64,000 bases of DNA from the IMG/VR virus record IMGVR_UViG_3300010354_015978, positions 46,676-110,675 of that record, one strand, 5' to 3'. A model generated the notes under the pieces. That model did not search any database. It worked only from the letters and a program-made list of their open reading frames with translations, and was not told the origin of the DNA. A program made the position numbers and the translations under genes. The stretch is from a virus. Positions 5,728-16,960 of this stretch are shown in pieces (the stretch's first letter is position 1; every line of letters begins with the position of its first letter).

Positions 5728-6405
5728 CCCGCGACCGCTGTAGACTTCGTGCGAAGTCAAGGCGCGCATCACAGTGACACCAGGCCATACCACGCTGTGG
5801 TCCGCCAACAGCATGGCACGACCACGGCGAGCGATCACGGTTGAGCTGACCCCCACATACACATGATGTCCAATCTGCACGTTGCCGGTGAGCCTGGCGC
5901 CGATCTGTATCACGCTGTCAGGGCCCACAGTTACATCATGACTGACATAGGCCTGGTCACGTATGGTCACATGGTCATGCACCACAGCGCCATGGTTCAC
6001 CATGGCTAGGGCACCCACGCGCACGTTGCGCCCAAATCTAGCACCGGGTGATATCACGGCAGTGGGATGTACGATGGTGGCGCCCACGAGGTTGAAGCGT
6101 GACATCCACTCCAGGTACTGCTCACGTTTGGCGTTGTTGCGCTGGATGTCGGCATCGCGGCCCGGCTGCCAGCCAGTGGCCACAAAGAACTCGTATTGCT
6201 CGCGAGTGCCGGCTCTTAAGTATTCATGATCGGGCAACAATGGTAGGCCATGTATACTGTCCTGGCCACGATAGTCACGGTCCATGATGCCATGCACCCG
6301 GCGACCCACCAGCTCAAGACTTTCCACTACATTGGGCAAGGTGCTGCAATGGCCCATGATGATCACGGGCAGATGGTCTTCACGGATGGCTTGTATGGTG
6401 CGCAT
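5713..6405 (-). CDS. hexapeptide-repeat sugar acetyltransferase (NeuD/PglD-like)
   Basis: TIVHPTAVIS followed by left-handed beta-helix repeats; N-terminal Rossmann-like part. Confidence 0.85.
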   Translation of the reverse strand: MRTIQAIREDHLPVIIMGHCSTLPNVVESLELVGRRVHGIMDRDYRGQDSIHGLPLLPDHEYLRAGTREQYEFFVATGWQPGRDADIQRNNAKREQYLEWMSRFNLVGATIVHPTAVISPGARFGRNVRVGALAMVNHGAVVHDHVTIRDQAYVSHDVTVGPDSVIQIGARLTGNVQIGHHVYVGVSSTVIARRGRAMLLADHSVVWPGVTVMRALTSHEVYSGRGSKVS

Positions 6406-6430
6406 GTATAGATTTATCACCTAGTCAAGG

Positions 6431-6454
6431 CGAGACCCACCGAAGTGGGTCTCG
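6431..6454 (-). terminator. hairpin ending the tmRNA coding piece
   Basis: CGAGACCCAC-TTCG-GTGGGTCTCG. Confidence 0.7.
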
Positions 6455-6728
6455 GGAAGTTTCTGTTTCTCGGTATTCCTACCTCAGCAAGCCTCAAGCG
6501 GCCAGTGCGTATAGATCGTCGTTTGCGTCTATAAATTTGCTCGTTTAACGTCCGTCGCCTGACGTGCTGTCCACTCAGTTACTCTTTGCCCTGTCGAAAC
6601 CTTGACTGGCCCATCAAAAAACTTCTTAGCCGACCTTTCGGTATTCTACGGAAAGAAGCCTTTTGGTGGACCAGGTGGGAGTCGAACCCACGTCCAGAAC
6701 ACCTTTCTCATCGCTTCATACAGCAATA
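6455..6728 (-). ncRNA. ssrA: circularly permuted (two-piece) tmRNA, tag (A)ANDDLYALAA
   Basis: T-arm and acceptor 3' end GGACGTGGGTTCGACTCCCACCTGGTCCACCA (ends 6664) precede the 5' end GGGCCAGTCAAGGTTTCGAC (starts 6612); G3:U70; tag ORF 6526-6494. Outer ends approximate. Confidence 0.92.
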
Positions 6729-6729
6729 A

Positions 6730-7125
6730 TCAAAAATTTACCACGAACCTGCGACCACGATACTCAAACATCACGGTCTCGCCTACTTGTCGCTGCACGG
6801 GCACAGTGTTGCAGACCTGGCGCTGTTCCACATTGACCTGATCACGGCCGATGCGTTTGCCCACACCAGCACCCACAAGAGCACCCACCACAGTGGCTGC
6901 ATCACGACCACGACCGTCGCCCACTTGGTGACCGATGATACCGCCGGCCACGCCGCCGATCACGGTGCCCACGCCAGAATTGTCACGGGTGACATCTTCC
7001 ATGTAGCATTCTTGCTGATAGGCAGTGACCATGCGAGGACGACTCCAGACTACCTGGGCCACGTCTTCCGCTGCCATGGCAGCACCGCTGACTACAAATA
7101 GACCAATCGCAAACCACTTTTTCAT
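6730..7125 (-). CDS. secreted glycine-zipper 2TM domain protein
   Basis: signal peptide MKKWFAIGLF...AMA; GTVIGGVAGGIIGHQVGDGRGRDAATVVGALVGAGVG. Confidence 0.88.
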   Translation of the reverse strand: MKKWFAIGLFVVSGAAMAAEDVAQVVWSRPRMVTAYQQECYMEDVTRDNSGVGTVIGGVAGGIIGHQVGDGRGRDAATVVGALVGAGVGKRIGRDQVNVEQRQVCNTVPVQRQVGETVMFEYRGRRFVVNF

Positions 7126-8295: not shown

Positions 8296-8370
8296 TGGTA
8301 GGCGGTGAGGGGATCGAACCCCCGACCCTCTCCGTGTAAAGGAGACGCTCTACCTCTGAGCTAACCGCCT
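8296..8370 (-). tRNA. tRNA-Val(TAC)
   Basis: cloverleaf; loop TTTACAC; CCA encoded. Confidence 0.95.
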
Positions 8371-8373
8371 AAA

Positions 8374-8451
8374 TGGTCGGAATGGAGGGATTCGAACCCC
8401 CGACCCTCTGCTCCCAAAGCAGATGCGCTAGCCAGGCTGCGCTACATTCCG
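8374..8451 (-). tRNA. tRNA-Pro(TGG)
   Basis: cloverleaf; loop TTTGGGA; CCA. Confidence 0.95.
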
Positions 8452-8718
8452 GGAAGTGCTGTCAGTGGTAAGTGGGCTGCAACCACGAAACACATAGGCT
8501 TTGGCCGTGCGTAGTTCCATGAGGCTGAGCACACCGTCACTGTTCTTGTCGGCCTGGTCAAACAGGCTCTTGCTGATCTCGCAGTCCAGGCGCAGTTCTT
8601 CAAGACTGAGGCGACCGTCCAGATTCTGATCATAGAGATCTAATCTACGTTCGGTGGCCGACTGGGCCAAGGCCGACACGCTGGCAACGGCCATCAATGA
8701 CACGATTAACTTCTTCAT
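8428..8718 (-). CDS. secreted EF-hand protein
   Basis: signal peptide MKKLIVSL; EF-hands DQNLDGRLSLEE and DKNSDGVLSLME; 3' end overlaps tRNA-Pro. Confidence 0.85.
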   Translation of the reverse strand: MKKLIVSLMAVASVSALAQSATERRLDLYDQNLDGRLSLEELRLDCEISKSLFDQADKNSDGVLSLMELRTAKAYVFRGCSPLTTDSTSRNVAQPG

Positions 8719-8744
8719 ATTTGGTACTCCTATATAGACCAACT

Positions 8745-8818
8745 TGGCTGGGGTGCATGGGCTCGAACCACGATTAGCGGAATCAAAATCCGCTGTCCTA
8801 CCATTAGACGACACCCCA
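8745..8818 (-). tRNA. tRNA-Gln(TTG)
   Basis: cloverleaf; loop TTTTGAT; CCA. Confidence 0.95.
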
Positions 8819-8820
8819 AA

Positions 8821-9069
8821 TTAGTTTTCGAAACAGCGATAACCGGCCTGATGTTCGAAAGTCAACAGGCCAGCGCGAGGAGAACCTGGACGGGTACAAA
8901 TCCCCCAATCCGTGCCAAGATCCTTGCCCAGCGGGCGCCACCACCGACAGCCGCTGGAGCAGTCGGGGTAGTATTCTTCGGGATGGTCCCAACGTTCCAC
9001 TTCTCCACCGTAGTCACGATAGTCTGTGGGCAAACGCACCAGGATGTTCCAGTACCCTTTTTCACTCAT
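8821..9069 (-). CDS. small Cys-rich protein (DUF3027-like)
   Basis: DCSSGCRWW...DWGIC..P.SPRAG.LTFEH. Confidence 0.65.
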   Translation of the reverse strand: MSEKGYWNILVRLPTDYRDYGGEVERWDHPEEYYPDCSSGCRWWRPLGKDLGTDWGICTRPGSPRAGLLTFEHQAGYRCFEN

Positions 9070-9081
9070 GGGCGTAGTATA

Positions 9082-9516
9082 CTACACCACATATTCATAG
9101 TTAATGGTTTCTGGGTTGCTGCGGAACACCAAAGCACCATTTCGGAGATGGAACTTGCGCGCCATCTCGGTGGGTGGACTGAGAGTGACGAACCTAGTGA
9201 TCTCGGGGCGATGTTCGCGGATCCAATCGCGCGCCTGGAAAATGAGATCACGCCCGGCTCCGGGCTGATAACTCCATATTGTGTAGAAGATCGCGACCAA
9301 GGGATGATCGCAGTCCTGAAAGAGATCACGCTCGCTCTCGGGTATGGTGGCCTGATAACTCACACAGGTCACGGCCAGAGCACGGTCTTGGTCCCGGCTC
9401 ACAAACACATCGCGATTGGGACCTATGCGTGTCTGTTGTGGGATGCCGGGACGCACGGGATCTTCCTCTAGCAGTCGGAACAGGTCATCGGTGGTGTTGC
9501 GTATAAGATGGAGCAT
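9082..9516 (-). CDS. hypothetical protein, possible GNAT-like fold
   Basis: FYTIWSYQPGAG...MARKFHLRNG pattern. Confidence 0.65.
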   Translation of the reverse strand: MLHLIRNTTDDLFRLLEEDPVRPGIPQQTRIGPNRDVFVSRDQDRALAVTCVSYQATIPESERDLFQDCDHPLVAIFYTIWSYQPGAGRDLIFQARDWIREHRPEITRFVTLSPPTEMARKFHLRNGALVFRSNPETINYEYVV

Positions 9517-9556
9517 AATCAACGTATATATCTAAAAGATTAAAAAACAACTAGAA

Positions 9557-9633
9557 TGGCCCGGCCGGAGGGATTCGAACCCCCGACCGTGGGATTAGAA
9601 ATCCCATGCTCTATCCTACTGAGCTACGGCCGG
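9557..9633 (-). tRNA. tRNA-Arg(TCT)
   Basis: cloverleaf; loop TTTCTAA; CCA. Confidence 0.95.
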
Positions 9634-9636
9634 ACA

Positions 9637-9712
9637 TGGAGCGGGAGACGAGGCTTGAACTCGCGACATCCGGTTTGGAAGACCGGTGCTCTACCAACTG
9701 AGCTACTCCCGC
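9637..9712 (-). tRNA. tRNA-Gly(TCC)
   Basis: cloverleaf; loop CTTCCAA; U73; CCA. Confidence 0.95.
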
Positions 9713-9715
9713 GTA

Positions 9716-10186
9716 TTAGGCCACCATGGCGCGCTGCAAGCGATCAGCGGCGTAACTGGCCGCAAACGCATTGGGCTTGACCATGGGGATGACATTGCAG
9801 GTACCGCGTATGTAACCAATGGCCTGCTGTATCACGCAACTGCTGCCGTAGTGATCGTTGGGGTTGATGTCAAGATGCACTTCAACTTCACGATCAGCCA
9901 GCACCGGTGACAGTCTTTGATACATCTCACTGACACGATAAACTTCGTTCATGAGACGCATGCTGGGCCGGTCCACTCTCTGATCAAAGTCGCGCTCGCG
10001 CGAAACTTCGCCAAAAATTTTGCAACCGTTGTTGCCATTGACATGCACCACGATGGCCACGGTGTATTCCGCCCACCAGGTATGACGGAAACGATACCTG
10101 ACGCTATCAGCACCCAAGTACACCCTGGTGCCAGGTCCCTGTTGTTTAATGAAGTCCTGGACTTCTTGTAGGTTTATTTTTTGCAT
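9716..10186 (-). CDS. RNase H-like YkuK (DUF458) family protein
   Basis: YLGADS; RLMNEV; EVHLDIN; KPNAFAASYAADR. Confidence 0.85.
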   Translation of the reverse strand: MQKINLQEVQDFIKQQGPGTRVYLGADSVRYRFRHTWWAEYTVAIVVHVNGNNGCKIFGEVSRERDFDQRVDRPSMRLMNEVYRVSEMYQRLSPVLADREVEVHLDINPNDHYGSSCVIQQAIGYIRGTCNVIPMVKPNAFAASYAADRLQRAMVA

Positions 10187-10198
10187 AAGTCACTTGTT

Positions 10199-10780
10199 TT
10201 AATCCACGGTGTTGAGAGACGAGCTCTTGAACCCCACCATGCCGCCTTCCTGCTGGATGCGTTTGATGACATCTTCAAACAGTATGGGGCGATAGTCTGT
10301 GTGTTCCACGCACACACAATGATATCTAGTGTCAATCACCGGCTGGGCACCGGCATATTTGGCTCGCATCACGCGCCGGTAGTGCAGGTGACCGTGTATG
10401 TTACAGCCAAAGCGTCCCAGGCTTTCTTCATGCACCGGCACATGGCTCAATATCATGCCGTTCATGACATGGTAGCTGCGGATGTCGCGGAAGTGCGCAG
10501 CATAGTCATTGAGCTTGAAGATGTCATGGTTGCCCTTGATCAAGACCTTGTCGCCCTTGAGACGGCGCAGGATGTTGAGACTGCGTCGATTGATCACGAC
10601 ATCGCCGAGATGATACACTTTGTCATTGGGGCGCACGGTTTCGTTCCAACGCTGCACCATGGCTTCGTCCATTTCTTCAACGTCGTCCCAGGGGCGCAGT
10701 TTGCTACCGTCATCCCGGGTGAATCTGCAGACGCCGGTATGGCCAAAGTGAGTGTCACTGACCAGATATACCGCGGGCAT
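10199..10780 (-). CDS. calcineurin-like metallophosphoesterase
   Basis: SDTHFGH; HLGD; GNHD; HGHLH. Confidence 0.93.
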   Translation of the reverse strand: MPAVYLVSDTHFGHTGVCRFTRDDGSKLRPWDDVEEMDEAMVQRWNETVRPNDKVYHLGDVVINRRSLNILRRLKGDKVLIKGNHDIFKLNDYAAHFRDIRSYHVMNGMILSHVPVHEESLGRFGCNIHGHLHYRRVMRAKYAGAQPVIDTRYHCVCVEHTDYRPILFEDVIKRIQQEGGMVGFKSSSLNTVD

Positions 10781-10791
10781 GATAGTTCTCC

Positions 10792-11388
10792 TTATATGAG
10801 TTTGTGCGCAGCCACCATGAACCAGGCCGGGATGTTGTGCCCCGGCACTGGCATCTGTACGCTGCGAATGCTTTCTATGTCAAGATGTGGTTGCACAGCA
10901 TCCGCTATGTCAGCAAGACTGCGGTGACTGAGCTTGGGATCATCGCGGCGTCTTTGCTCGGTGCAGTCTACCACGCTGATGTATCTACCATGTGGTGCAA
11001 GATGCCGTGCTGCCGCGGCCACCAAGGCACTGCGGTCCTGACTGCGATTCAACACCACCATGACTCCGCGTTCAAACACCACGTCAAACTTGCCAAGATC
11101 CACACCGGGATCCAGTATGTCCGCATGTCGGAAATCTATGTTGGGCCAAGATGCACGACATTGTTGTATGATGTAATCGCTGATGTCCACGGCCACTACA
11201 TCATGTCCCTGTGATTCTAACCAGGCCGCATTGTAGCCTTGTCCGCAACCAATCTCCAGAACACGCAGGAAACGCTGTGGCTGCGATGAGAGCCATGCTT
11301 CTAGGTCAGCATCATGCACATGGTGCATCCATGCCGCTGACATCTGCTGCCACTGTTGATTCCAAAATTGTTGTAAAGGTTTGTCCAT
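10792..11388 (-). CDS. class I SAM-dependent methyltransferase
   Basis: VLEIGCGQG; VAVDIS; FDVVFE. Start uncertain. Confidence 0.9.
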   Translation of the reverse strand: MDKPLQQFWNQQWQQMSAAWMHHVHDADLEAWLSSQPQRFLRVLEIGCGQGYNAAWLESQGHDVVAVDISDYIIQQCRASWPNIDFRHADILDPGVDLGKFDVVFERGVMVVLNRSQDRSALVAAAARHLAPHGRYISVVDCTEQRRRDDPKLSHRSLADIADAVQPHLDIESIRSVQMPVPGHNIPAWFMVAAHKLI

Positions 11389-11597
11389 AGCAAAGGTCAC
11401 TGTCCTGTGTTTAAGAGCCAGGTGTGTTGGCCAGGGCTACCTGCCCTGCACCCAGCTCTCCTGATCATGCTTATTCCAGAAGCCATCCGGATACCACCCA
11501 ATTGGGTCGCAGTGGATCGTGGATCGGTTGCTCCCCTGACAGTTGGGGTATTGCTGGCGAAGCGGTCTTTCGCTCACGACCTTTGCTATGGTCACAC
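11385..11597 (-). ncRNA. candidate structured RNA closed by a 14-bp perfect stem
   Basis: CCATAGCAAAGGTC (11591-11578) pairs with GACCTTTGCTATGG (11398-11385); internal hairpins. Confidence 0.6.
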
Positions 11598-11608
11598 GTA
11601 ATTATAAC

Positions 11609-11700
11609 TGGTACCCCGGGCCGGAGTCGAACCGACATTGGCCAATTATCTGTTGCACACGGGATATAAATCCGCTGTTTTACCATTAAACTACCGGGGC
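11609..11700 (-). tRNA. atypical tRNA, anticodon TAT (Ile), 22-nt variable region
   Basis: GCCCCGG acceptor; D arm; loop TTTATAT; long V region; GGTTCGACTCC T-arm; ACCA. Confidence 0.85.
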
Positions 11701-11706
11701 ATGTCA

Positions 11707-11784
11707 TGGAGCATCGGGTGAGATTCGAACTCACGAATCGACGGCTTTGCAGGCCGCGCCATTGGACCACTCTGGTACCGATGC
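11707..11784 (-). tRNA. tRNA-Cys(GCA)
   Basis: loop CTGCAAA; U73; CCA. Confidence 0.92.
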
Positions 11785-11789
11785 ATGAT

Positions 11790-11864
11790 TGGAGCGGACG
11801 GAGGGATTCGAACCCTCGACATTCACGTTGGCAACGTGACATTCTACCACTGAATTACGCCCGC
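11790..11864 (-). tRNA. tRNA-Gly(GCC)
   Basis: loop TTGCCAA; CCA. Confidence 0.95.
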
Positions 11865-11865
11865 T

Positions 11866-11873
11866 TATAAATA
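11866..11873 (+). promoter_or_regulatory. T4-type late promoter TATAAATA
   Basis: exact TATAAATA 4 nt before ATG 11878. Confidence 0.7.
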
Positions 11874-11877
11874 TCCT

Positions 11878-12465
11878 ATGTTTCAATTCTTCACTAATGG
11901 TCGTTTGGCTTGGTTGCGTGTCCTGAAAAATGCCAGTTCTAGTTATGCTCGTGTGTTCGAAGATCTGGACTGGGAATTACACGATCTCTACAAAACCAAA
12001 ATTGATACTGACTCTCTGACTTGGTTTGGTCTACTACGCGATCCCAATGTAAGACACAGCATGGGCATCGTGCAGTATCTCATGGAGCAAAGCCTTCAGG
12101 CCTGTCTAGATGAACCACTGTGTCATCCCTTGCTGACATCGGCCTGCTTGGATGCACATAGCATGCCCATCACGGCCCAGATACCCGAAAGCATCGTGCA
12201 TCGGGCACACTGGTTTGTGCTGGACCATCCTACGTACGATCATGAGCGACTGTTGAGAAATTTTCTAAGAACTCACAAATTTGAACTGCCACCGGTGCCA
12301 CGCATACACGAAAGTACCGCGGAAAAACGACAAATGCAGCAGCGCATCGAAGATCTCAAAAAAGCCAATACCATGGCCTGGTACAAACTACAGATGGTGT
12401 TGGGTGCAGATCTCAAGCTCTATCGACACAGACTGCAGATGCAGCATCTATACGATACGCCATGA
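11878..12465 (+). CDS. sulfotransferase-like protein
   Basis: 5'-PSB-like RVLKNASSS and 3'-PB-like LLRDPNVR.S. Confidence 0.65.
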   Translation: MFQFFTNGRLAWLRVLKNASSSYARVFEDLDWELHDLYKTKIDTDSLTWFGLLRDPNVRHSMGIVQYLMEQSLQACLDEPLCHPLLTSACLDAHSMPITAQIPESIVHRAHWFVLDHPTYDHERLLRNFLRTHKFELPPVPRIHESTAEKRQMQQRIEDLKKANTMAWYKLQMVLGADLKLYRHRLQMQHLYDTP

Positions 12466-12467
12466 AC

Positions 12468-12559
12468 TGGCGGTGAGTGTTGGATTCGAACCAACGGACC
12501 CGGTTGCCCAGATCGACAGGTTAGCAACCTGCTGCTTTCGACCACTCAGCCAACTCACC
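12468..12559 (-). tRNA. tRNA-Ser(GCT)
   Basis: loop TTGCTAA; long V arm; G73; CCA. Confidence 0.95.
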
Positions 12560-12561
12560 TT

Positions 12562-12666
12562 TTATTCGTCTTTGTTGCGCCACGGCCACCACATGTAAGC
12601 GGTACAGGCCGCTGCGGCGATTGTAAATGCCAAGATACCAACGATGTTTGCTGCTATGAATTCCAC
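12562..12666 (-). CDS. 34-aa single-TM peptide MEFIAANIVGILAFTIAAAACTAYMWWPWRNKDE
   Basis: GTG start; hydrophobic segment plus charged tail; fills the inter-tRNA gap. Confidence 0.5.
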   Translation of the reverse strand: MEFIAANIVGILAFTIAAAACTAYMWWPWRNKDE

Positions 12667-12687
12667 TGTTCTACTCTCTCTGTTGTA

Positions 12688-12762
12688 TGGTGCCGGCGGA
12701 GAGATTTGAACTCCCGACCAACGGTTTACAAAACCGCTGCACTACCACTGTGCTACGCCGGC
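12688..12762 (-). tRNA. tRNA-Thr(TGT)
   Basis: loop TTTGTAA; CCA. Confidence 0.95.
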
Positions 12763-12809
12763 GCGATTTGATTATTATATAGCAAGGCATATGGCCTTGC
12801 AATGCTATC

Positions 12810-12902
12810 TGGCGGAAAAGGTGAGACTCGAACTCACACACTCCTGTCGGAGCCTTCGGTTTTCAAGACCGCTGCCGCTAGTCCAACTCGGCTAACTTTT
12901 CC
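12810..12902 (-). tRNA. tRNA-Ser(TGA)
   Basis: loop CTTGAAA; long V arm; G73; CCA. Confidence 0.93.
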
Positions 12903-13009
12903 AAGATCCGGTTACCCAGTCCGGAGCAGGCGTTAGGTCCCTGCGGCGCCTCAGTTCACCCATCCCGATGCCATGCCAAGCAGAGAGCCAGCCGGACGTT
13001 CGCTGTGTA

Positions 13010-13084
13010 TGGTGCTGATGAGTGGGATCGAACCACCGGCTTCCTCCTTACCAAGGAGGTACTCTACCACTGAGTTACATCAGC
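13010..13084 (-). tRNA. tRNA-Thr(GGT)
   Basis: loop TTGGTAA; CCA. Confidence 0.95.
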
Positions 13085-14639
13085 GTTGTTGTCTTGCCTG
13101 TTGCCAGACTATGTCTTTGTATTGCCTGGCCATGCGCCACTTGCGACGCACGATGTCGTCCCAGGGCAGTTGATCATAAGGAACACGGAACTGCTGTAGG
13201 TCATCGTAGCCCAGGCCCATGAATGTCCAGACCTGGTTGCTGGTGGGTCTGCGCACCACGCCAAAGTTGGCTTTGTCGCTGAGTTCACAGGCGCGGTAAA
13301 AGTCCATGTGATCGTTTTCCCAGTACAGCACGTTGGGATTGTCCTCGCAGGGACGGATGTTGCGATAGCCGTACTTTTCGGGATTGAGCTCTATCTTGCT
13401 GGGATAGAGATTGTATCCACGGTAGAGGTAGAACGCCGGCATGGCATAACTGTCCAAGGGGTTTTCGCTGCTGCGCAACCACTCTATGGTCTGTTCTAGG
13501 CTTTCCTGTGTCTCGTGTGGCAGGCCTGCTATGAGACTGGCACTGAGCATGGTCTTGGGCCAGCGATGCCGGAGTTCTTGCAGTCCCGCCGTGATGCGTT
13601 CGCGATCGGCACTCTTGCCAATGGCGCTGCCGGTGCGTTTGTTGAGGCTCTCGATACCAAAGTGCGTGGCTCTGCATCCGCTTTCGTAGATCATGTCCAT
13701 CTGATCACGGTGTGCCACGATGAGGTCCAGTCTTAGATAGGCCCAGTACTCCAGCTCAAATGGCAGCGCACGACTGAGATCCAACATGTACTGCACCTTC
13801 TCTCGGCTGTCGTTGAAGGTGTCATCCAAGAGATAGTATCGCGTGATGCCATAGCGTTCGTAGTTTTCCACCATCTCGCGATACAAGAGATCGTGTCGCT
13901 TGATGTAGTCCAGTTTGTTCTTGCCATTGAGCGGATAACTGCAAAATGCGCAGTGGAAGATGCATCCACGCGACACTTCTATGGGCAGGCTTTCGCCGGG
14001 CAAGACACCATCATAGGGCCGGTAACTCATGGTGGAGTTCACAAAGTCATATGACTCGGCCCGGCGATCATCTATGATGGTCGGACCCCAGATGCTGCGC
14101 TGCCGTTTGGGCAGCCTGATGCCTTGGCTGAGGTGTTGTGCCAGCCATACTATGCTGAGGTCAGCGTAGCCTGGTATCACGTAGTCATAATCGCGATTGA
14201 AATCGCTGTCGTGTGCCAGGGGACCGCCCAACACAAACTTGACTCTGGGATTGATACCATGTACATGGGCTTTGAGCTGTTGGTTGTATTGATGTCCGTG
14301 TGGCAGCATGGCGCCGTTCATGCGGCTCATGCTGTGGCTCAACACCATGTCGCGATCTCGGGGCTCTGCGATGCTGTAGTCAAACTGCCGTATCTCGCGG
14401 TAAAACATGGGATTGAACCCAATGAACAAGGTCTGGTCGCTGACCAGTCCCGACAGGATGTCAAAGATTTCCTCGGGAGCGAACACATGAGCGTGGTGCA
14501 GCACGAACACTTCAAACCCAGCCTGCCGGAGCTCATAGGCCACTTTGTAGGGCCCGTAACTCTTGGTCAGTCCGTATGTTTCAGTGATGTCCGAGATGAA
14601 AATTACGTTGGGGCGACTGTTGTCGAACCATTCGTTCAT
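13080..14639 (-). CDS. B12-binding-type radical SAM protein
   Basis: EVSRGCIFHCAFC; DDTFN; FGIES; IAGLPHET. Confidence 0.9.
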   Translation of the reverse strand: MNEWFDNSRPNVIFISDITETYGLTKSYGPYKVAYELRQAGFEVFVLHHAHVFAPEEIFDILSGLVSDQTLFIGFNPMFYREIRQFDYSIAEPRDRDMVLSHSMSRMNGAMLPHGHQYNQQLKAHVHGINPRVKFVLGGPLAHDSDFNRDYDYVIPGYADLSIVWLAQHLSQGIRLPKRQRSIWGPTIIDDRRAESYDFVNSTMSYRPYDGVLPGESLPIEVSRGCIFHCAFCSYPLNGKNKLDYIKRHDLLYREMVENYERYGITRYYLLDDTFNDSREKVQYMLDLSRALPFELEYWAYLRLDLIVAHRDQMDMIYESGCRATHFGIESLNKRTGSAIGKSADRERITAGLQELRHRWPKTMLSASLIAGLPHETQESLEQTIEWLRSSENPLDSYAMPAFYLYRGYNLYPSKIELNPEKYGYRNIRPCEDNPNVLYWENDHMDFYRACELSDKANFGVVRRPTSNQVWTFMGLGYDDLQQFRVPYDQLPWDDIVRRKWRMARQYKDIVWQQARQQR

Positions 14640-14655
14640 GTCATTATATATGCAT

Positions 14656-14733
14656 TGGTGGTGATGGGTGGGATCGAACCACCGACCTTGGGGTTATGAA
14701 TCCCACGCTCTGACCGGACTGAGCTACATCACC
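14656..14733 (-). tRNA. tRNA-Met(CAT) (elongator-type; Ile2 not excluded)
   Basis: loop TTCATAA; paired 1:72; CCA. Confidence 0.9.
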
Positions 14734-14738
14734 GGAAG

Positions 14739-14814
14739 TGGTACGGGCAGAGGGATTCGAACCCACGACCAACAGATTAAAAGTCTGCTGCTCTACCGAC
14801 TGAGCTATGCCCGC
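14739..14814 (-). tRNA. tRNA-Lys(TTT)
   Basis: loop CTTTTAA; CCA. Confidence 0.95.
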
Positions 14815-14815
14815 A

Positions 14816-14878
14816 TCAAAGACGTCGCATCACGATGAACAACATCACGAAAATTACCAAGATGACAAAGGCAGCCAT
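14816..14878 (-). CDS. 20-aa hydrophobic peptide MAAFVILVIFVMLFIVMRRL
   Basis: AGGAG RBS; fills the gap between two tRNAs. Confidence 0.55.
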   Translation of the reverse strand: MAAFVILVIFVMLFIVMRRL

Positions 14879-14893
14879 GATGTTCTCCTAGAT

Positions 14894-14969
14894 TGGTGCC
14901 TGGTGCTGGATTCGAACCAGCGACCCGCGCCTTATCAAGACGCTGCTCTACCAACTGAGCTAACCGGGC
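14894..14969 (-). tRNA. tRNA-Ile(GAT)
   Basis: loop TTGATAA; CCA. Confidence 0.95.
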
Positions 14970-14970
14970 A

Positions 14971-15047
14971 TGGGGTGACTGGTGGGAATCGAACCCACGA
15001 ATGTCGGGATCACAACCCGAGGCCTTGACCGCTTGGCTACAGCCACC
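14971..15047 (-). tRNA. tRNA-His(GTG)
   Basis: loop TTGTGAT; G-1:C73; CCA. Confidence 0.95.
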
Positions 15048-15054
15048 ATGGACA

Positions 15055-15131
15055 TGGTCTCTGTGACAGGATTTGAACCTGCGACCCCTTGCACCCCATG
15101 CAAGTGCGCTACCAGTCTGCGCCACACAGAG
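15055..15131 (-). tRNA. tRNA-Pro(GGG)
   Basis: loop ATGGGGT; C1:G72; CCA. Confidence 0.95.
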
Positions 15132-15275
15132 AAAAAAGAAATAGTAGGGGTTGAAGAAATCTGGTTCGTCTCTGGCACCTCGAGTATGCCTTGACCCTTG
15201 ATACTCCCATCGCTGTGCGACAAACCTTACACCAGAAGGTAGGGCGGGAAATTCTATTTATAACTGACAATAAAA

Positions 15276-15352
15276 TGGTGCCCCAGAGGAGACTCGAACT
15301 CCTAAAATTTGGCTTCTAAGACCAACACGTATACCAATTCCGTCACCGGGGC
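15276..15352 (-). tRNA. tRNA-Leu(TAG) with short variable loop
   Basis: Leu-type D arm GACGGAATTGGTATAC; loop CTTAGAA; 77 nt; A73. Confidence 0.9.
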
Positions 15353-15362
15353 GATATCAAAA

Positions 15363-15437
15363 TGGTGGAGGATGAGAGAATCGAACTCTCAACTCTGCGA
15401 TGCAAACGCAGCGTGTTCCCATTAGCACTAATCCCCC
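15363..15437 (-). tRNA. tRNA-Ala(TGC)
   Basis: loop TTTGCAT; G3:U70; CCA. Confidence 0.95.
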
Positions 15438-15441
15438 AAAC

Positions 15442-15518
15442 TGGCGACCCGTACCGGACTTGAACCGGTGGCCTCATGCGTGACAGGCATGCGATCTAAC
15501 CAACTGATCTAACGGGCC
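15442..15518 (-). tRNA. tRNA-Asp(GTC)
   Basis: loop CTGTCAC; G73; CCA. Confidence 0.95.
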
Positions 15519-15532
15519 AAATAAATATCTAC

Positions 15533-15709
15533 ATGGAAGTCGCAAAACTGCTGCCTGAGTACGTGCCTTTGATTGATACGCAGACGGCACGGGCAACCAA
15601 TACCGCTGTCAGCACAGCCGCTAGTCTACTGGTCATGACGCCGCAAGAAATACAACAAAATCTCGAGCGTTGGCGCGAGCACAATGAACGCATCCATGTA
15701 GTGGTGTAA
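15533..15709 (+). CDS. 58-aa hypothetical protein MEVAKLLPEYVPLID... (not in ORF track)
   Basis: open frame preceded by ATAAATA late-promoter motif. Confidence 0.55.
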   Translation: MEVAKLLPEYVPLIDTQTARATNTAVSTAASLLVMTPQEIQQNLERWREHNERIHVVV

Positions 15710-15915
15710 GGCGTGGGCTATCGTTCGCGTATTGGCCGCTACTAGATTGTTGTCAGCCATACCCCCACGCAGCATGGCCTAGTCCGTTACACCTCATGTA
15801 CAGTCGCGTGATACCCGAACGGACAATCTCTCTCACGCCTGCGATGTTGCGTCATGCCCGCTGTAAAAAAATAAGGCGGGGAGCCTCCGGTGATAGCCCT
15901 CCCATAACATCGTAA
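15709..15915 (-). ncRNA. candidate structured RNA(s): two consecutive closed domains
   Basis: AGGCGTG/CACGCCT and CGATGTT/AACATCG closing stems; inner GTCCGTT/AACGGAC. Confidence 0.5.
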
Positions 15916-15931
15916 GGTAGGAAGGCATTGT

Positions 15932-16006
<75 letters not shown>

Positions 16007-16011
16007 AAATG

Positions 16012-16086
16012 TGGTGAACCCAAGGGAATTCGAATCCCTATTCTCACCGTGAAAGGGTGATGTCCTAACCGTTAGACGATGGGTCC
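16012..16086 (-). tRNA. tRNA-Glu(TTC)
   Basis: loop CTTTCAC; CCA. Confidence 0.95.
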
Positions 16087-16095
16087 ATGATTGAA

Positions 16096-16275
16096 TTTGC
16101 TGACGGCCCAGCGCCACATCCATCGCTGGCATTTGACCTGTAAAACAAGACCGGTCAGGTGTGTGGTACGCAGTGCCAGCAGATACTTGGGAGCCTCTCT
16201 CACGTTCAGACCTCGCTGTACCCTCTCTCGCCATGTGCCCATGGCGGATTTCTCTGCATCTGCACCGTCAACAAA
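16096..16275 (-). ncRNA. candidate ~180-nt multi-branched RNA
   Basis: TTTGTTGACGG/CCGTCAGCAAA closing stem; CGCCATG/CATGGCG; GCTGGCA/TGCCAGC; TGACC/GGTCA. Confidence 0.6.
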
Positions 16276-16278
16276 ACT

Positions 16279-16364
16279 TGGTGGGAAAGGAAGGATTCGA
16301 ACCTACTCAGCCTATGGCGCCAGATTTACAGTCTGGTGTGACTCTCCAACTTCACCGCTTGCCC
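16279..16364 (-). tRNA. tRNA-Tyr(GTA)
   Basis: loop CTGTAAA; V arm; CCA. Confidence 0.95.
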
Positions 16365-16368
16365 TTAA

Positions 16369-16466
16369 TTACTATATTGAAGCACTCTCTGTTATTTTTC
16401 GCAGAACTCACCTAAGAGTCGCCATCCAAACACTGTAATACAGTTGAGAGTGCTTCAATATAGTAA
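16369..16466 (-). repeat. 21-bp perfect inverted repeat hairpin (ATATTGAAGC family), copy A
   Basis: ttactatattgaagcactctc ... gagagtgcttcaatatagtaa. Confidence 0.9.
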
Positions 16467-16800
16467 GGTGCTTCCCCCTGCTGGCGGTAATTATAGCGCA
16501 TCAAGCATTGGGCTCTTCCTTACGGGTCCCAATACCATCACACACGCCTTCCACCCGCTTCCCAACACAGGGAGATTCTCGCATTGCCAGCGCCCTTCTC
16601 TGCCTAAGGGTAAGGTCCTGTGAGTCATGGTCTCACTTCTCATCGTGCGGACGCACACTATCCGATTATGAGTCGGAACGTTGGGATCACCGTTATGGAC
16701 AGCAATCTCCCTGCTGCCGTTTGCGCTCTAGGACTTGTCCGGAATTTCGTCTCTTCGAGCACACTGGGCTGGTTATGGTGGTCACAGCCATTTTCCGGTG
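16467..16800 (-). ncRNA. candidate ~330-nt ornate structured RNA (GOLLD-like?)
   Basis: at least 8 stems, a 10-bp long-range pairing and an isolated CAT anticodon-like arm; no credible ORF. Confidence 0.65.
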
Positions 16801-16805
16801 AATAC

Positions 16806-16881
<76 letters not shown>

Positions 16882-16889
16882 ATGAATTT

Positions 16890-16960
16890 CCATATTGAAG
16901 CACACTCACGGCTCTAAACCGCTGAACAATACTGTGCTGATAGAATGCGCTTCAATATGG
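16890..16960 (-). repeat. ATATTGAAGC-family hairpin, copy B
   Basis: CCATATTGAAGCGCATTC/GAGTGTGCTTCAATATGG, 18 bp with 2 G:U pairs on the minus strand. Confidence 0.85.

Follow-up and report, generated by a model that had tools for sequence, protein, structure and literature searches.

A covarying structured RNA in the tRNA array of an uncultured lake phage, and its relatives in other phage contigs

The stretch of DNA analysed here (the window, 64,000 nucleotides (nt) long) is the final 64 kb of a 110.7-kb IMG/VR record, IMGVR_UViG_3300010354_015978, from an uncultured lake phage. CheckV puts the completeness of the 110.7-kb record at 32%, and the virus is therefore a jumbo phage. ARAGORN and Rfam place an array of 24 transfer RNA (tRNA) genes at 8296-16881 on the minus strand; a 25th tRNA gene lies apart from it, at 27.5 kb on the same strand. 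A reading of the letters alone (the original prediction) had proposed an ornate RNA at 16467-16800, between tRNA-Trp and tRNA-Tyr. ARAGORN confirmed this location, and the proposed limits agree well with those of the RNA described here, which consists of a conserved core preceded by an accessory 5' domain (16467-16805; 338 nt together). All 19 words quoted in the prediction are found on the minus strand where it put them, or no more than a few bases away. Neither ARAGORN nor the Rfam tRNA model finds anything between 16365 and 16805, and no open reading frame (ORF) accounts for the region.

The way to relatives of this RNA led through a radical S-adenosylmethionine (SAM) enzyme gene within the array, which pointed to a distantly related phage contig, L004. 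The tRNA array of L004 contains a stretch 73% identical to the 3' two-thirds, and only to that part, of the flagged region. Two words common to both copies were scanned across IMG/VR and, with the addition of blastn and a covariance model, yielded a set of about 90 loci in uncultivated phage contigs, each with exactly one copy. These score 50-239 bits against R1, a covariance model built from 58 homologues with the window itself in the training set. Usual members reach 190-239 bits as against 150 for the window, and near relatives of the window that were outside the training set score much as it does (L194, 145 bits; L125, L058 and L159, 123-151 bits). With L048, whose core is 92% identical to its own, and L167/L194, the window falls into a divergent subtype. 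Most members are 200 nt long, within a range of 135-280 nt. When whole records were searched with R1, the core proved to be the sole copy within the 110.7-kb record, and five genomes of 320-347 kb that are 92-100% complete also carried one copy each, which makes six records searched whole.

The case for a structure is comparative and not thermodynamic, because the minimum free energy of the single sequence (-113 kcal/mol, z = -1.19) is no better than that of shuffled sequences while covariation is strong. In a MAFFT alignment of 58 members, RNAalifold found 38 pairs, and compensatory changes occur at 26 of these. The covariation test proper used a model-based alignment of 83 matches (69 distinct), to which helices and tertiary pairs beyond R1 were added. 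Across the 69 distinct sequences, standard pairing occupied 95.9% of cells, compared with 80.5% after partners had been shuffled and 34-46% after strands had been slid. Covariation among homologues, the check that the original prediction had named, was found at 39 of 54 pairs as compensatory (both-sided) changes, and none of 500 shuffles matched the real alignment on any of five measures. The flagged stretch encodes a real, intricately folded non-coding RNA.

As modelled from this alignment, the core folds into ten helices, with a loop-loop kiss between H1 and H3, a pseudoknot between J3/4 and the loop of H4 and a kink-turn (Table 1). Four of the stems picked out from the single sequence (TCCGA/TCGGA, GTGAG/CTCAC, CCCTT/AAGGG and ATTGGG/CCCAAT) correspond to H1, H3, H4 and H8 and show compensatory changes. 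GTGCG/CGCAC marks the covarying helix H2, although the register is slightly different (GUGUG/CGCAC). Two other proposed stems were lost: GCTGGC/GCCAGC clashes with the covarying H5, Pc, Pb and Pa, and TCCCAAC/GTTGGGA clashes with Pb and is missing in the closest relative, L048. A long 3' arm is composed of Pa, Pb, Pc and Pd, followed by the kink-turn and the variable hairpin H8 (16536-16504). The strands of Pa change together, CUCCCUG:CAGGGGG in the window being replaced elsewhere by GAAUCU:AGAUUC, GGACCC:GGGUCC, CUCUCUG:CAGAGAG or CCUCUUUG:CAGAGAGG. Pb is UUG:CAG in the window against UCG:CGG in the consensus; in Pc, which pairs 16558-16555 with 16487-16484, a C:G pair has become U:A in L187 and L220 and A:U in L165; and Pd pairs 16548-16543 with 16500-16495. 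Three further pairings were examined by eye and dropped, as they showed no covariation: ACGU near the 5' end with bases that follow H3, ACC in the H2 loop with the second copy of GGGUGG, and GCUGGC with a 3' GCCRG.

Table 1. Coordinates of the RNA, its structural elements and its neighbours in the window, with those of the compact relatives on their own contigs
Feature	Position	Strand	Remarks
tRNA-Trp(CCA)	16806-16881	-	Upstream neighbour of the RNA; ARAGORN; Rfam tRNA 66 bits
Optional 5' accessory domain	16686-16805	-	120 nt; three hairpins closed by CACCG (16800-16796)/CGGUG (16692-16688)
Conserved core RNA	16467-16683	-	217 nt; R1 cmsearch 150.1 bits, E 9e-42, model positions 1-201 (full length)
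H1 (UCCGA/UCGGA), loop CUCAUAA	16661-16677	-	Compensatory changes at 5/5 stem pairs
H2 (GUGUG/CGCAC)	16645-16658	-	Compensatory changes at 3/5 pairs, e.g. GC 37 / CG 27
GAUGAGAA(GU), nearly invariant single strand, H2-H3	16637-16644	-	Columns at least 90% conserved
H3 (GUGAG/CUCAC), loop ACCAUGA	16620-16636	-	Kissing partner of the H1 loop
J3/4 (AGGACCUUA) and H4 (CCCUU/AAGGG, loop AGGCAGAG)	16593-16619	-	H4 compensatory at 4/5 pairs
H5 (CGC/GCG), 7-nt loop UGGCAAU	16580-16592	-	Third pair CG 53 / UA 13
Pa 5' strand CUCCCUG	16568-16574	-	Partner CAGGGGG 16480-16474; modelled pairs 4/4 compensatory
Pd (GGCGUG/UGCGCU), putative kink-turn and H8	16495-16548	-	Pd compensatory 5/6, H8 7/7
3' strands of Pc, Pb and Pa	16474-16487	-	Pc CCGC 16487-16484, Pb CAG 16483-16481, Pa CAGGGGG 16480-16474
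Long hairpin, arms UAUAUUGAAGCACUCUC/GAGAGUGCUUCAAUAUA	16369-16466	-	98 nt; separate element in the gap between the RNA and tRNA-Tyr
tRNA-Tyr(GUA)	16279-16364	-	Downstream neighbour of the RNA; ARAGORN
Compact relatives	L199:1034-1168, L149:6760-6908, L138:4422-4556, L172:655-791, L210:8271-8406, L185:2997-3131		Six loci

The tertiary contacts of the core covary too, although neither the kiss nor the pseudoknot, PK1, is part of the R1 model. In the window, UCAU of the H1 loop faces AUGA of the H3 loop. The two loops are complementary in every subgroup, with 4-6 Watson-Crick pairs kept despite differing sequence, and at least six types occur, among them UGUC:GACA (the consensus), AUCA:UGAU, GUCA:UGAC, UAACG:CGUUA and UAAU:AUUA; columns 14 and 55 of the kiss hold GC 43 times and AU 20 times. 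In the window, PK1 joins CCU in J3/4 to AGG in the H4 loop; most members have GGU:ACC, L034 has GGC:GCC, and the clade of the window has ACC:GGU or CCU:AGG. A putative kink-turn between Pd and H8 is recognised in the window by a UGU bulge (16542-16540) followed by the pairs G16539-A16501 and A16538-G16502; the tandem G-A/A-G occurs in 46-47 of the 69 sequences, with G-C/A-U instead in about 15. The loop of H5, UGGCAAU, looks like a T-loop.

Six compact relatives, 135-149 nt long and scoring 50-66 bits, correspond to the 5' half of the core only. H1-H5 and the GAUGAGAAGU strand are retained, as is the pseudoknot in the form CGG:CCG, and the nearly invariant strand between H2 and H3 is present in them as well; their 3' part is short and different. 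The locus is without any tRNA in five of the six, and in the sixth, L172, a single tRNA lies directly upstream. Several are preceded by the AT-rich UAGUAUAAAG.

To its divergent core, the window phage adds an extra 5' domain of 120 nt. This domain is fused to the core in only about eight distinct relatives, and about 80 other members lack it. Copies 83-88% identical to that of the window stand 3-4 nt ahead of the core in L115, L083, L249, L246 and L248, and the metagenome contigs L250, L251, L252 and L254 show the hairpin-loop motif of the domain and then the core. RNAalifold on four sequences gave 30 pairs, five with compensatory changes. The CCGGAA/TTCCGG helix first proposed here is broken in relatives, and the domain is closed by the covarying stem CACCG/CGGUG instead. 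The hairpin GGCAGC/GCTGTC fared better: as GGCAGC/GCUGUC it is the last of the domain, shows compensatory changes in homologues and has the invariant loop AGGGAGAUU. An exact 22-mer of the 5'-domain hairpin had no match in IMG/VR.

The same hairpin had been assigned a long-range pseudoknot, in which CAGGGAGATT (16713-16704) would pair with AATCTCCCTG (16577-16568). The complementarity does exist, at 10 of 10 positions, but the target strand covaries across the family with the 3' tail, as Pa. The 10-bp (base-pair) pairing would thus join the 5'-domain hairpin loop to the Pa 5' strand. Counted as pairs between loop and target, the window has 10 of Watson-Crick type, L250/L254 have 10 with a bulge and two G-U, and the L115 type has 6, so that 6 to 10 bp are kept in the other RNAs with a 5' domain. 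The loop CAGGGAGAUU never varies whereas its presumed target does, and because of this invariance there is no compensatory proof for the pairing, which is at best a possible alternative to Pa. If real, it would exclude Pa and would therefore be a toggle, not a static pseudoknot; a conformational toggle in which the 5'-domain loop and the 3' tail share one target strand is possible. The H5 loop reads UGGCAGU in most RNAs with a 5' domain (L115, L246, L248, L249, L251 and L252) and UGGCAAU in the window, L250 and L254; the UGGCAGU form may reflect a contact between the 5' domain and H5, or simply common descent.

We compared the RNA with known families. Against Rfam 15, the whole window gave no match in the flagged region at gathering thresholds, and the interval 16350-16900 gave none of relevance at E<=10; nor did the consensus-type member L011 or the compact member L185. 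At the same cutoff the window RNA, L011 and L185 matched none of the models for ribonuclease (RNase) P, T-box, transfer-messenger RNA (tmRNA), signal recognition particle RNA or 6S RNA, the tmRNA gene of the window being a different locus (6403-6756), and the ribozyme models for hepatitis delta virus (HDV)/theta, hammerhead, twister, hatchet, pistol and glmS gave no match either. Read from the sequence, the window RNA has GAUGAG without the hammerhead CUGAUGA. Models of GOLLD and ROOL matched neither the window nor L011. The Rfam comparison foreseen in the original prediction therefore brought no strong match to GOLLD, ROOL or others that would remove the novelty of the RNA, and the proposal of a new structured non-coding RNA in a phage tRNA cluster held, with no Rfam match even at E<=10. 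A survey of 2023 has 10,006 candidate viral structured RNAs and lists 8,495 unnamed candidates from IMG/VR (PMC10690425); the family is called new here by comparison with Rfam. Used as the query, in this direction only, R1 found no match at E<=10 in positions 69000-74000 of the T4 genome (NC_000866), which hold rnaC and rnaD.

The genomic setting of the family is regular. Transfer RNA genes occur in 79 of 87 loci, every one on the strand of the RNA. A tRNA that encodes its CCA ends 0-10 nt before G1 of the RNA (...CCA|GAACGU) in 48 of 70 loci, and the next tRNA begins within 30 nt of the 3' end, mostly within 0-8, in 32 of 71. The neighbouring tRNAs themselves vary, the commonest upstream being Tyr, Ser, Arg and Cys, and downstream Cys, Ala and Ile. 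In a blastn comparison of the core and a consensus member with 50,697 cultured-phage records, no match to either was found; only the neighbouring tRNA-Trp matched. A gapped pattern that fits most members did not find the family in one genome per GTDB species; its two matches were rejected as chance, both being R1-negative and without tRNAs. The stretch was found in 14 DNA runs from nine studies, which contain 39-64% of the sampled words, and these runs are labelled lake or fresh water except for the four of one study.

Sequence of the core is also present in RNA libraries. Contigs of four lake or river metatranscriptome runs with separate study codes cover 16481-16665; four of the contigs are letter-perfect, at a word depth of 16-388, and two contigs 174-175 nt long lie wholly within the core. 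These contigs are consistent with a stable transcript. No RNA contig fell on 16682-16801, in the 5' domain, or on 16370-16465, in the hairpin before tRNA-Tyr; contigs alone were compared, so this does not imply cleavage. High depth over tRNA-Trp was discarded as a phage signal, since the contigs concerned are 90-95% alike and come from other organisms.

With its fold, its single copy in six whole records, its tRNA neighbours on the same strand and its presence in metatranscriptomes, the core can be considered for what it might do. We put at roughly 60% the probability that the window RNA is one member of a widespread, uncatalogued family of structured non-coding RNAs of about 200 nt that lives in the tRNA arrays of large uncultivated freshwater phages (T4-like phages and jumbo phages of 320-347 kb), and that it is a stable RNA released along with tRNAs and acting in trans. 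Such an RNA would be co-transcribed with the tRNAs and excised by the tRNA-maturation nucleases of the host: its 3' end would come from the RNase P cut that generates the 5' end of the following tRNA, and its 5' end, at GAACGU, from processing of the 3' CCA end of the tRNA before it. Release by tRNA maturation is suggested because the RNA of most relatives fills the spacer between two tRNAs exactly. Once freed, the RNA would persist as a stable folded molecule acting in trans, most likely by binding some conserved component of the tRNA or translation machinery, or by pairing with its own copies. Action in trans is favoured because many unpaired nucleotides are invariant (GAUGAGAAGU, GGGUGG twice, UGGCAAU and AUAAUUACC) and there is no fixed partner gene; regulation of a neighbouring gene is unlikely. 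Judged from the alignment, the density of invariant unpaired bases, the knotted fold, the apparent kink-turn and the retention of the 5' half outside arrays suggest that the RNA works through its shape, which would serve for binding a conserved target, for catalysis or for self-assembly. A place in the phage translation module is indicated because the RNA is strictly single-copy in lake phages of 320-347 kb and fits exactly between tRNAs.

The RNAs rnaC (species 1, 139 nt) and rnaD (species 2, 119 nt) of phage T4 offer a parallel, as they too are tRNA-flanked non-coding RNAs on the tRNA strand, in or beside a tRNA cluster, and their release is presumably the work of the same nucleases. The window RNA differs from them in being larger (200-340 nt) and in having a candidate kink-turn arm, a kissing loop and a pseudoknot, and there is no detectable homology.

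Several facts weigh against a trans-acting RNA released by tRNA maturation. In the window itself the RNA does not abut the tRNAs, as the 120-nt domain and a 98-nt hairpin intervene, and therefore extra processing steps or a promoter of its own would be needed. The compact relatives lie outside tRNA arrays. From the metatranscriptome contigs neither the 5' and 3' ends nor the strand nor the expression level can be read, and RNA libraries may carry contaminating DNA. Clustering of neighbouring genes over 91 loci revealed no protein family in more than 25% of them, and the argument for action in trans would come solely from the conservation of unpaired bases. The commonest neighbours, each in 22 loci at most, are a PdeM-like metallophosphoesterase, a PF04308 RNase-H-like protein, an unnamed 149-aa (amino acid) protein, an RNA-polymerase omega-like ORF and a D-Ala-D-Ala carboxypeptidase. 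An ORF of 77 aa at L086:7706-7936 matches RNA polymerase omega/Rpb6 (PF01192, E 9e-11) and is found near arrays in 18 other loci.

Of the readings that we rank, the trans-acting RNA of the translation module comes first, a cis processing element or ribozyme second, and a multimer made of RNA only third. The second of these, which we regard as improbable, would make the RNA either a new ribozyme that cleaves itself at its own 5' edge, directly behind the CCA of the tRNA before it, in the manner of the theta ribozymes of gut phages, or a folded spacer that orders the cuts of RNase P and RNase E. In its favour, the RNA starts at most loci at the first base after the encoded CCA; its first bases, A3, C4, G5 and U6, are 90-100% conserved though unpaired; and the fold is complex and knotted, with many invariant unpaired bases. 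Theta ribozymes are small self-cleavers of the HDV fold, roughly 50-70 nt long. They are minimal HDV-like ribozymes and sit directly 3' of phage tRNAs, and so provide both a precedent and a likeness, that of a structured element immediately 3' of a phage tRNA gene (PMC10879173). The window RNA, however, lacks the nested double pseudoknot of the HDV type and matches no Rfam ribozyme model even at E<=10, its 5' bases lie outside any P1-like helix, which the HDV fold needs, and about 200 nt is large for a self-cleaver. Moreover, the window and about 20 other loci have no tRNA directly before the RNA and yet an intact core, and the compact variants occur outside tRNA arrays.

Equally doubtful in our view is a more specific proposal, that the family is a new functional class of RNA acting on tRNAs, either as a cleaver at its own first nucleotide that frees the CCA of the preceding tRNA or as a tRNA-capturing RNA akin to T-box or RNase P. 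In the capture form, the GGGUGG loops, the T-loop-like hairpin and the kink-turn arm would grip the 3' ends or elbows of tRNAs during a takeover of translation by the phage. For the subtype of the window, the proposal would have the 5' domain act as a switch for helix Pa. The likeness to T-box and RNase P RNA is a lead only and lies in shared vocabulary: an arm with a kink-turn at its base, a possible T-loop, and the words GGGUGG and UACCGC, which recall two sequences that bind tRNA 3' ends, that of the T-box and the GGU in the L15 loop of RNase P. The window RNA has no P4-type core, no terminator and no antiterminator, and the GGU of J3/4 has an intramolecular partner already, the H4 loop.

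Somewhat less probable still is an RNA-only multimer in the manner of ROOL and GOLLD, in which H1 and H3 would pair between molecules. Covariation is blind to whether a contact is intra- or intermolecular, and in GOLLD and ROOL, loop pairings at first predicted as tertiary contacts proved to link separate chains (PMC12286853). The family shares their genomic setting, and no protein partner is evident from the clustering of neighbouring genes. GOLLD and ROOL resemble the present family in being elaborate pseudoknotted RNAs of phages and prophages, often near tRNA islands, with covarying loop-loop contacts (PMC12286853). The original prediction had called the RNA compact and GOLLD-like, which is apt for its location but not for its size, 217-338 nt against 500-800 nt, or for its sequence, as no GOLLD or ROOL model matches. 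Those RNAs are about 580 to more than 800 nt long and build cages of 8 to 14 chains, whereas the family measures 135-280 nt, or 338 with the 5' domain, and, unlike them, was not found in cellular or prophage genomes in the pattern scan of one genome per GTDB species. Besides the three- to fourfold difference in size from ROOL and GOLLD and the lack of detectable homology, H1 and H3 are one hairpin apart, so that a kiss within one molecule would be sterically easy.

Built on the original prediction is the idea of a GOLLD-like RNA with the 10-bp pseudoknot, in which the lone CAT anticodon arm would serve as a tRNA-Met decoy, in this version for anticodon nucleases; we hold this to be very unlikely, and by comparison of sequences the decoy is largely refuted. 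The arm is real as a stem, H1, and its 5-bp helix carries the loop CUCAUAA in the window. This loop, however, is confined to the window and L048; elsewhere 11 other loops of 6-8 nt occur, including GUGUCU, CUAAUCA and GGUAACGC. It is thus not conserved as an anticodon and instead covaries with the H3 loop as its kissing partner, and ARAGORN and Rfam see no tRNA here. The pseudoknot can draw on its full complementarity in the window and on at least 6 bp possible in every RNA with a 5' domain, but the strand that it targets is paired to the 3' tail across the family, as compensatory changes attest, while its proposed partner loop is invariant, and some 80 members are without the 5' domain. Least credible of all is that the stretch is not an RNA gene but a small protein gene or a DNA element (promoter, attachment site or remnant of a decayed tRNA): a TATAAT word does lie within the conserved CUAUAAUUACC, but its flanks covary as the helices Pd and Pc; stop-free frames do span the entire element in 23 of 64 members, but they differ among members and are split over four frame/strand classes, no single frame being open in more than 10, and member lengths differ by non-multiples of three; and the 39 compensatory pairs are explicable only by selection at the level of RNA.

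Phage tRNA arrays have housed enigmatic structured RNAs since T4 rnaC and rnaD were described in the 1970s, with GOLLD and ROOL following later, and to our knowledge none of the four has an assigned function. The family adds a further, unrelated example. Being compact (about 200 nt), abundant (about 90 contigs) and rich in tertiary motifs, it is tractable for structure determination and biochemistry, and a function, if found, whether catalytic, tRNA-binding or self-assembling, would bear on why phages keep RNAs beside their tRNAs. Meanwhile, R1 lets annotators recognise the RNA in viral metagenomes, where it is at present an unannotated gap.

The hairpin that separates the RNA from tRNA-Tyr has a counterpart in a second long inverted-repeat hairpin at 16890-16958 on the minus strand, and the arms of both share UAUUGAAGCAC. 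Each sits just 5' of a tRNA, that at 16369-16466 of tRNA-Tyr and that at 16890-16958 of tRNA-Trp. At no fewer than 10 related phage loci besides this one, the 11-mer UAUUGAAGCAC, mostly present once, begins where the RNA ends on its 3' side; it may serve these phages as a signal for processing or termination.

Elsewhere, the window encodes a collagen-like tail fibre and a DNA polymerase matching PHROG family phrog_262, which we take to be T4-type, the match itself identifying a DNA-polymerase family only. Just downstream of the tRNA array lies a tmRNA gene (6403-6756, minus strand), permuted according to ARAGORN, which scores 153.6 bits as a betaproteobacterial tmRNA and 139.9 bits as a permuted tmRNA and so suggests a betaproteobacterial host. 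Within the array, in the gap between tRNA-Leu and tRNA-Pro, a full-length Rfam COG2908 RNA motif (15205-15249, minus strand; 67.1 bits against a gathering score of 58.7) is remote from the type of gene that gave it its name. The radical SAM enzyme, 519 aa long (13080-14639, minus strand), stands in the middle of the array; its closest families are B12-binding radical SAM enzymes, headed by PhpK-type P-methyltransferases, and three other phage contigs encode relatives at 29-33% identity, with a tRNA array visible at L004 alone. Finally, the tRNA-Ile with anticodon UAU (11609-11700, minus strand) is unusually long, at 92 nt by ARAGORN, and scores 53.8 bits against the Rfam tRNA model.

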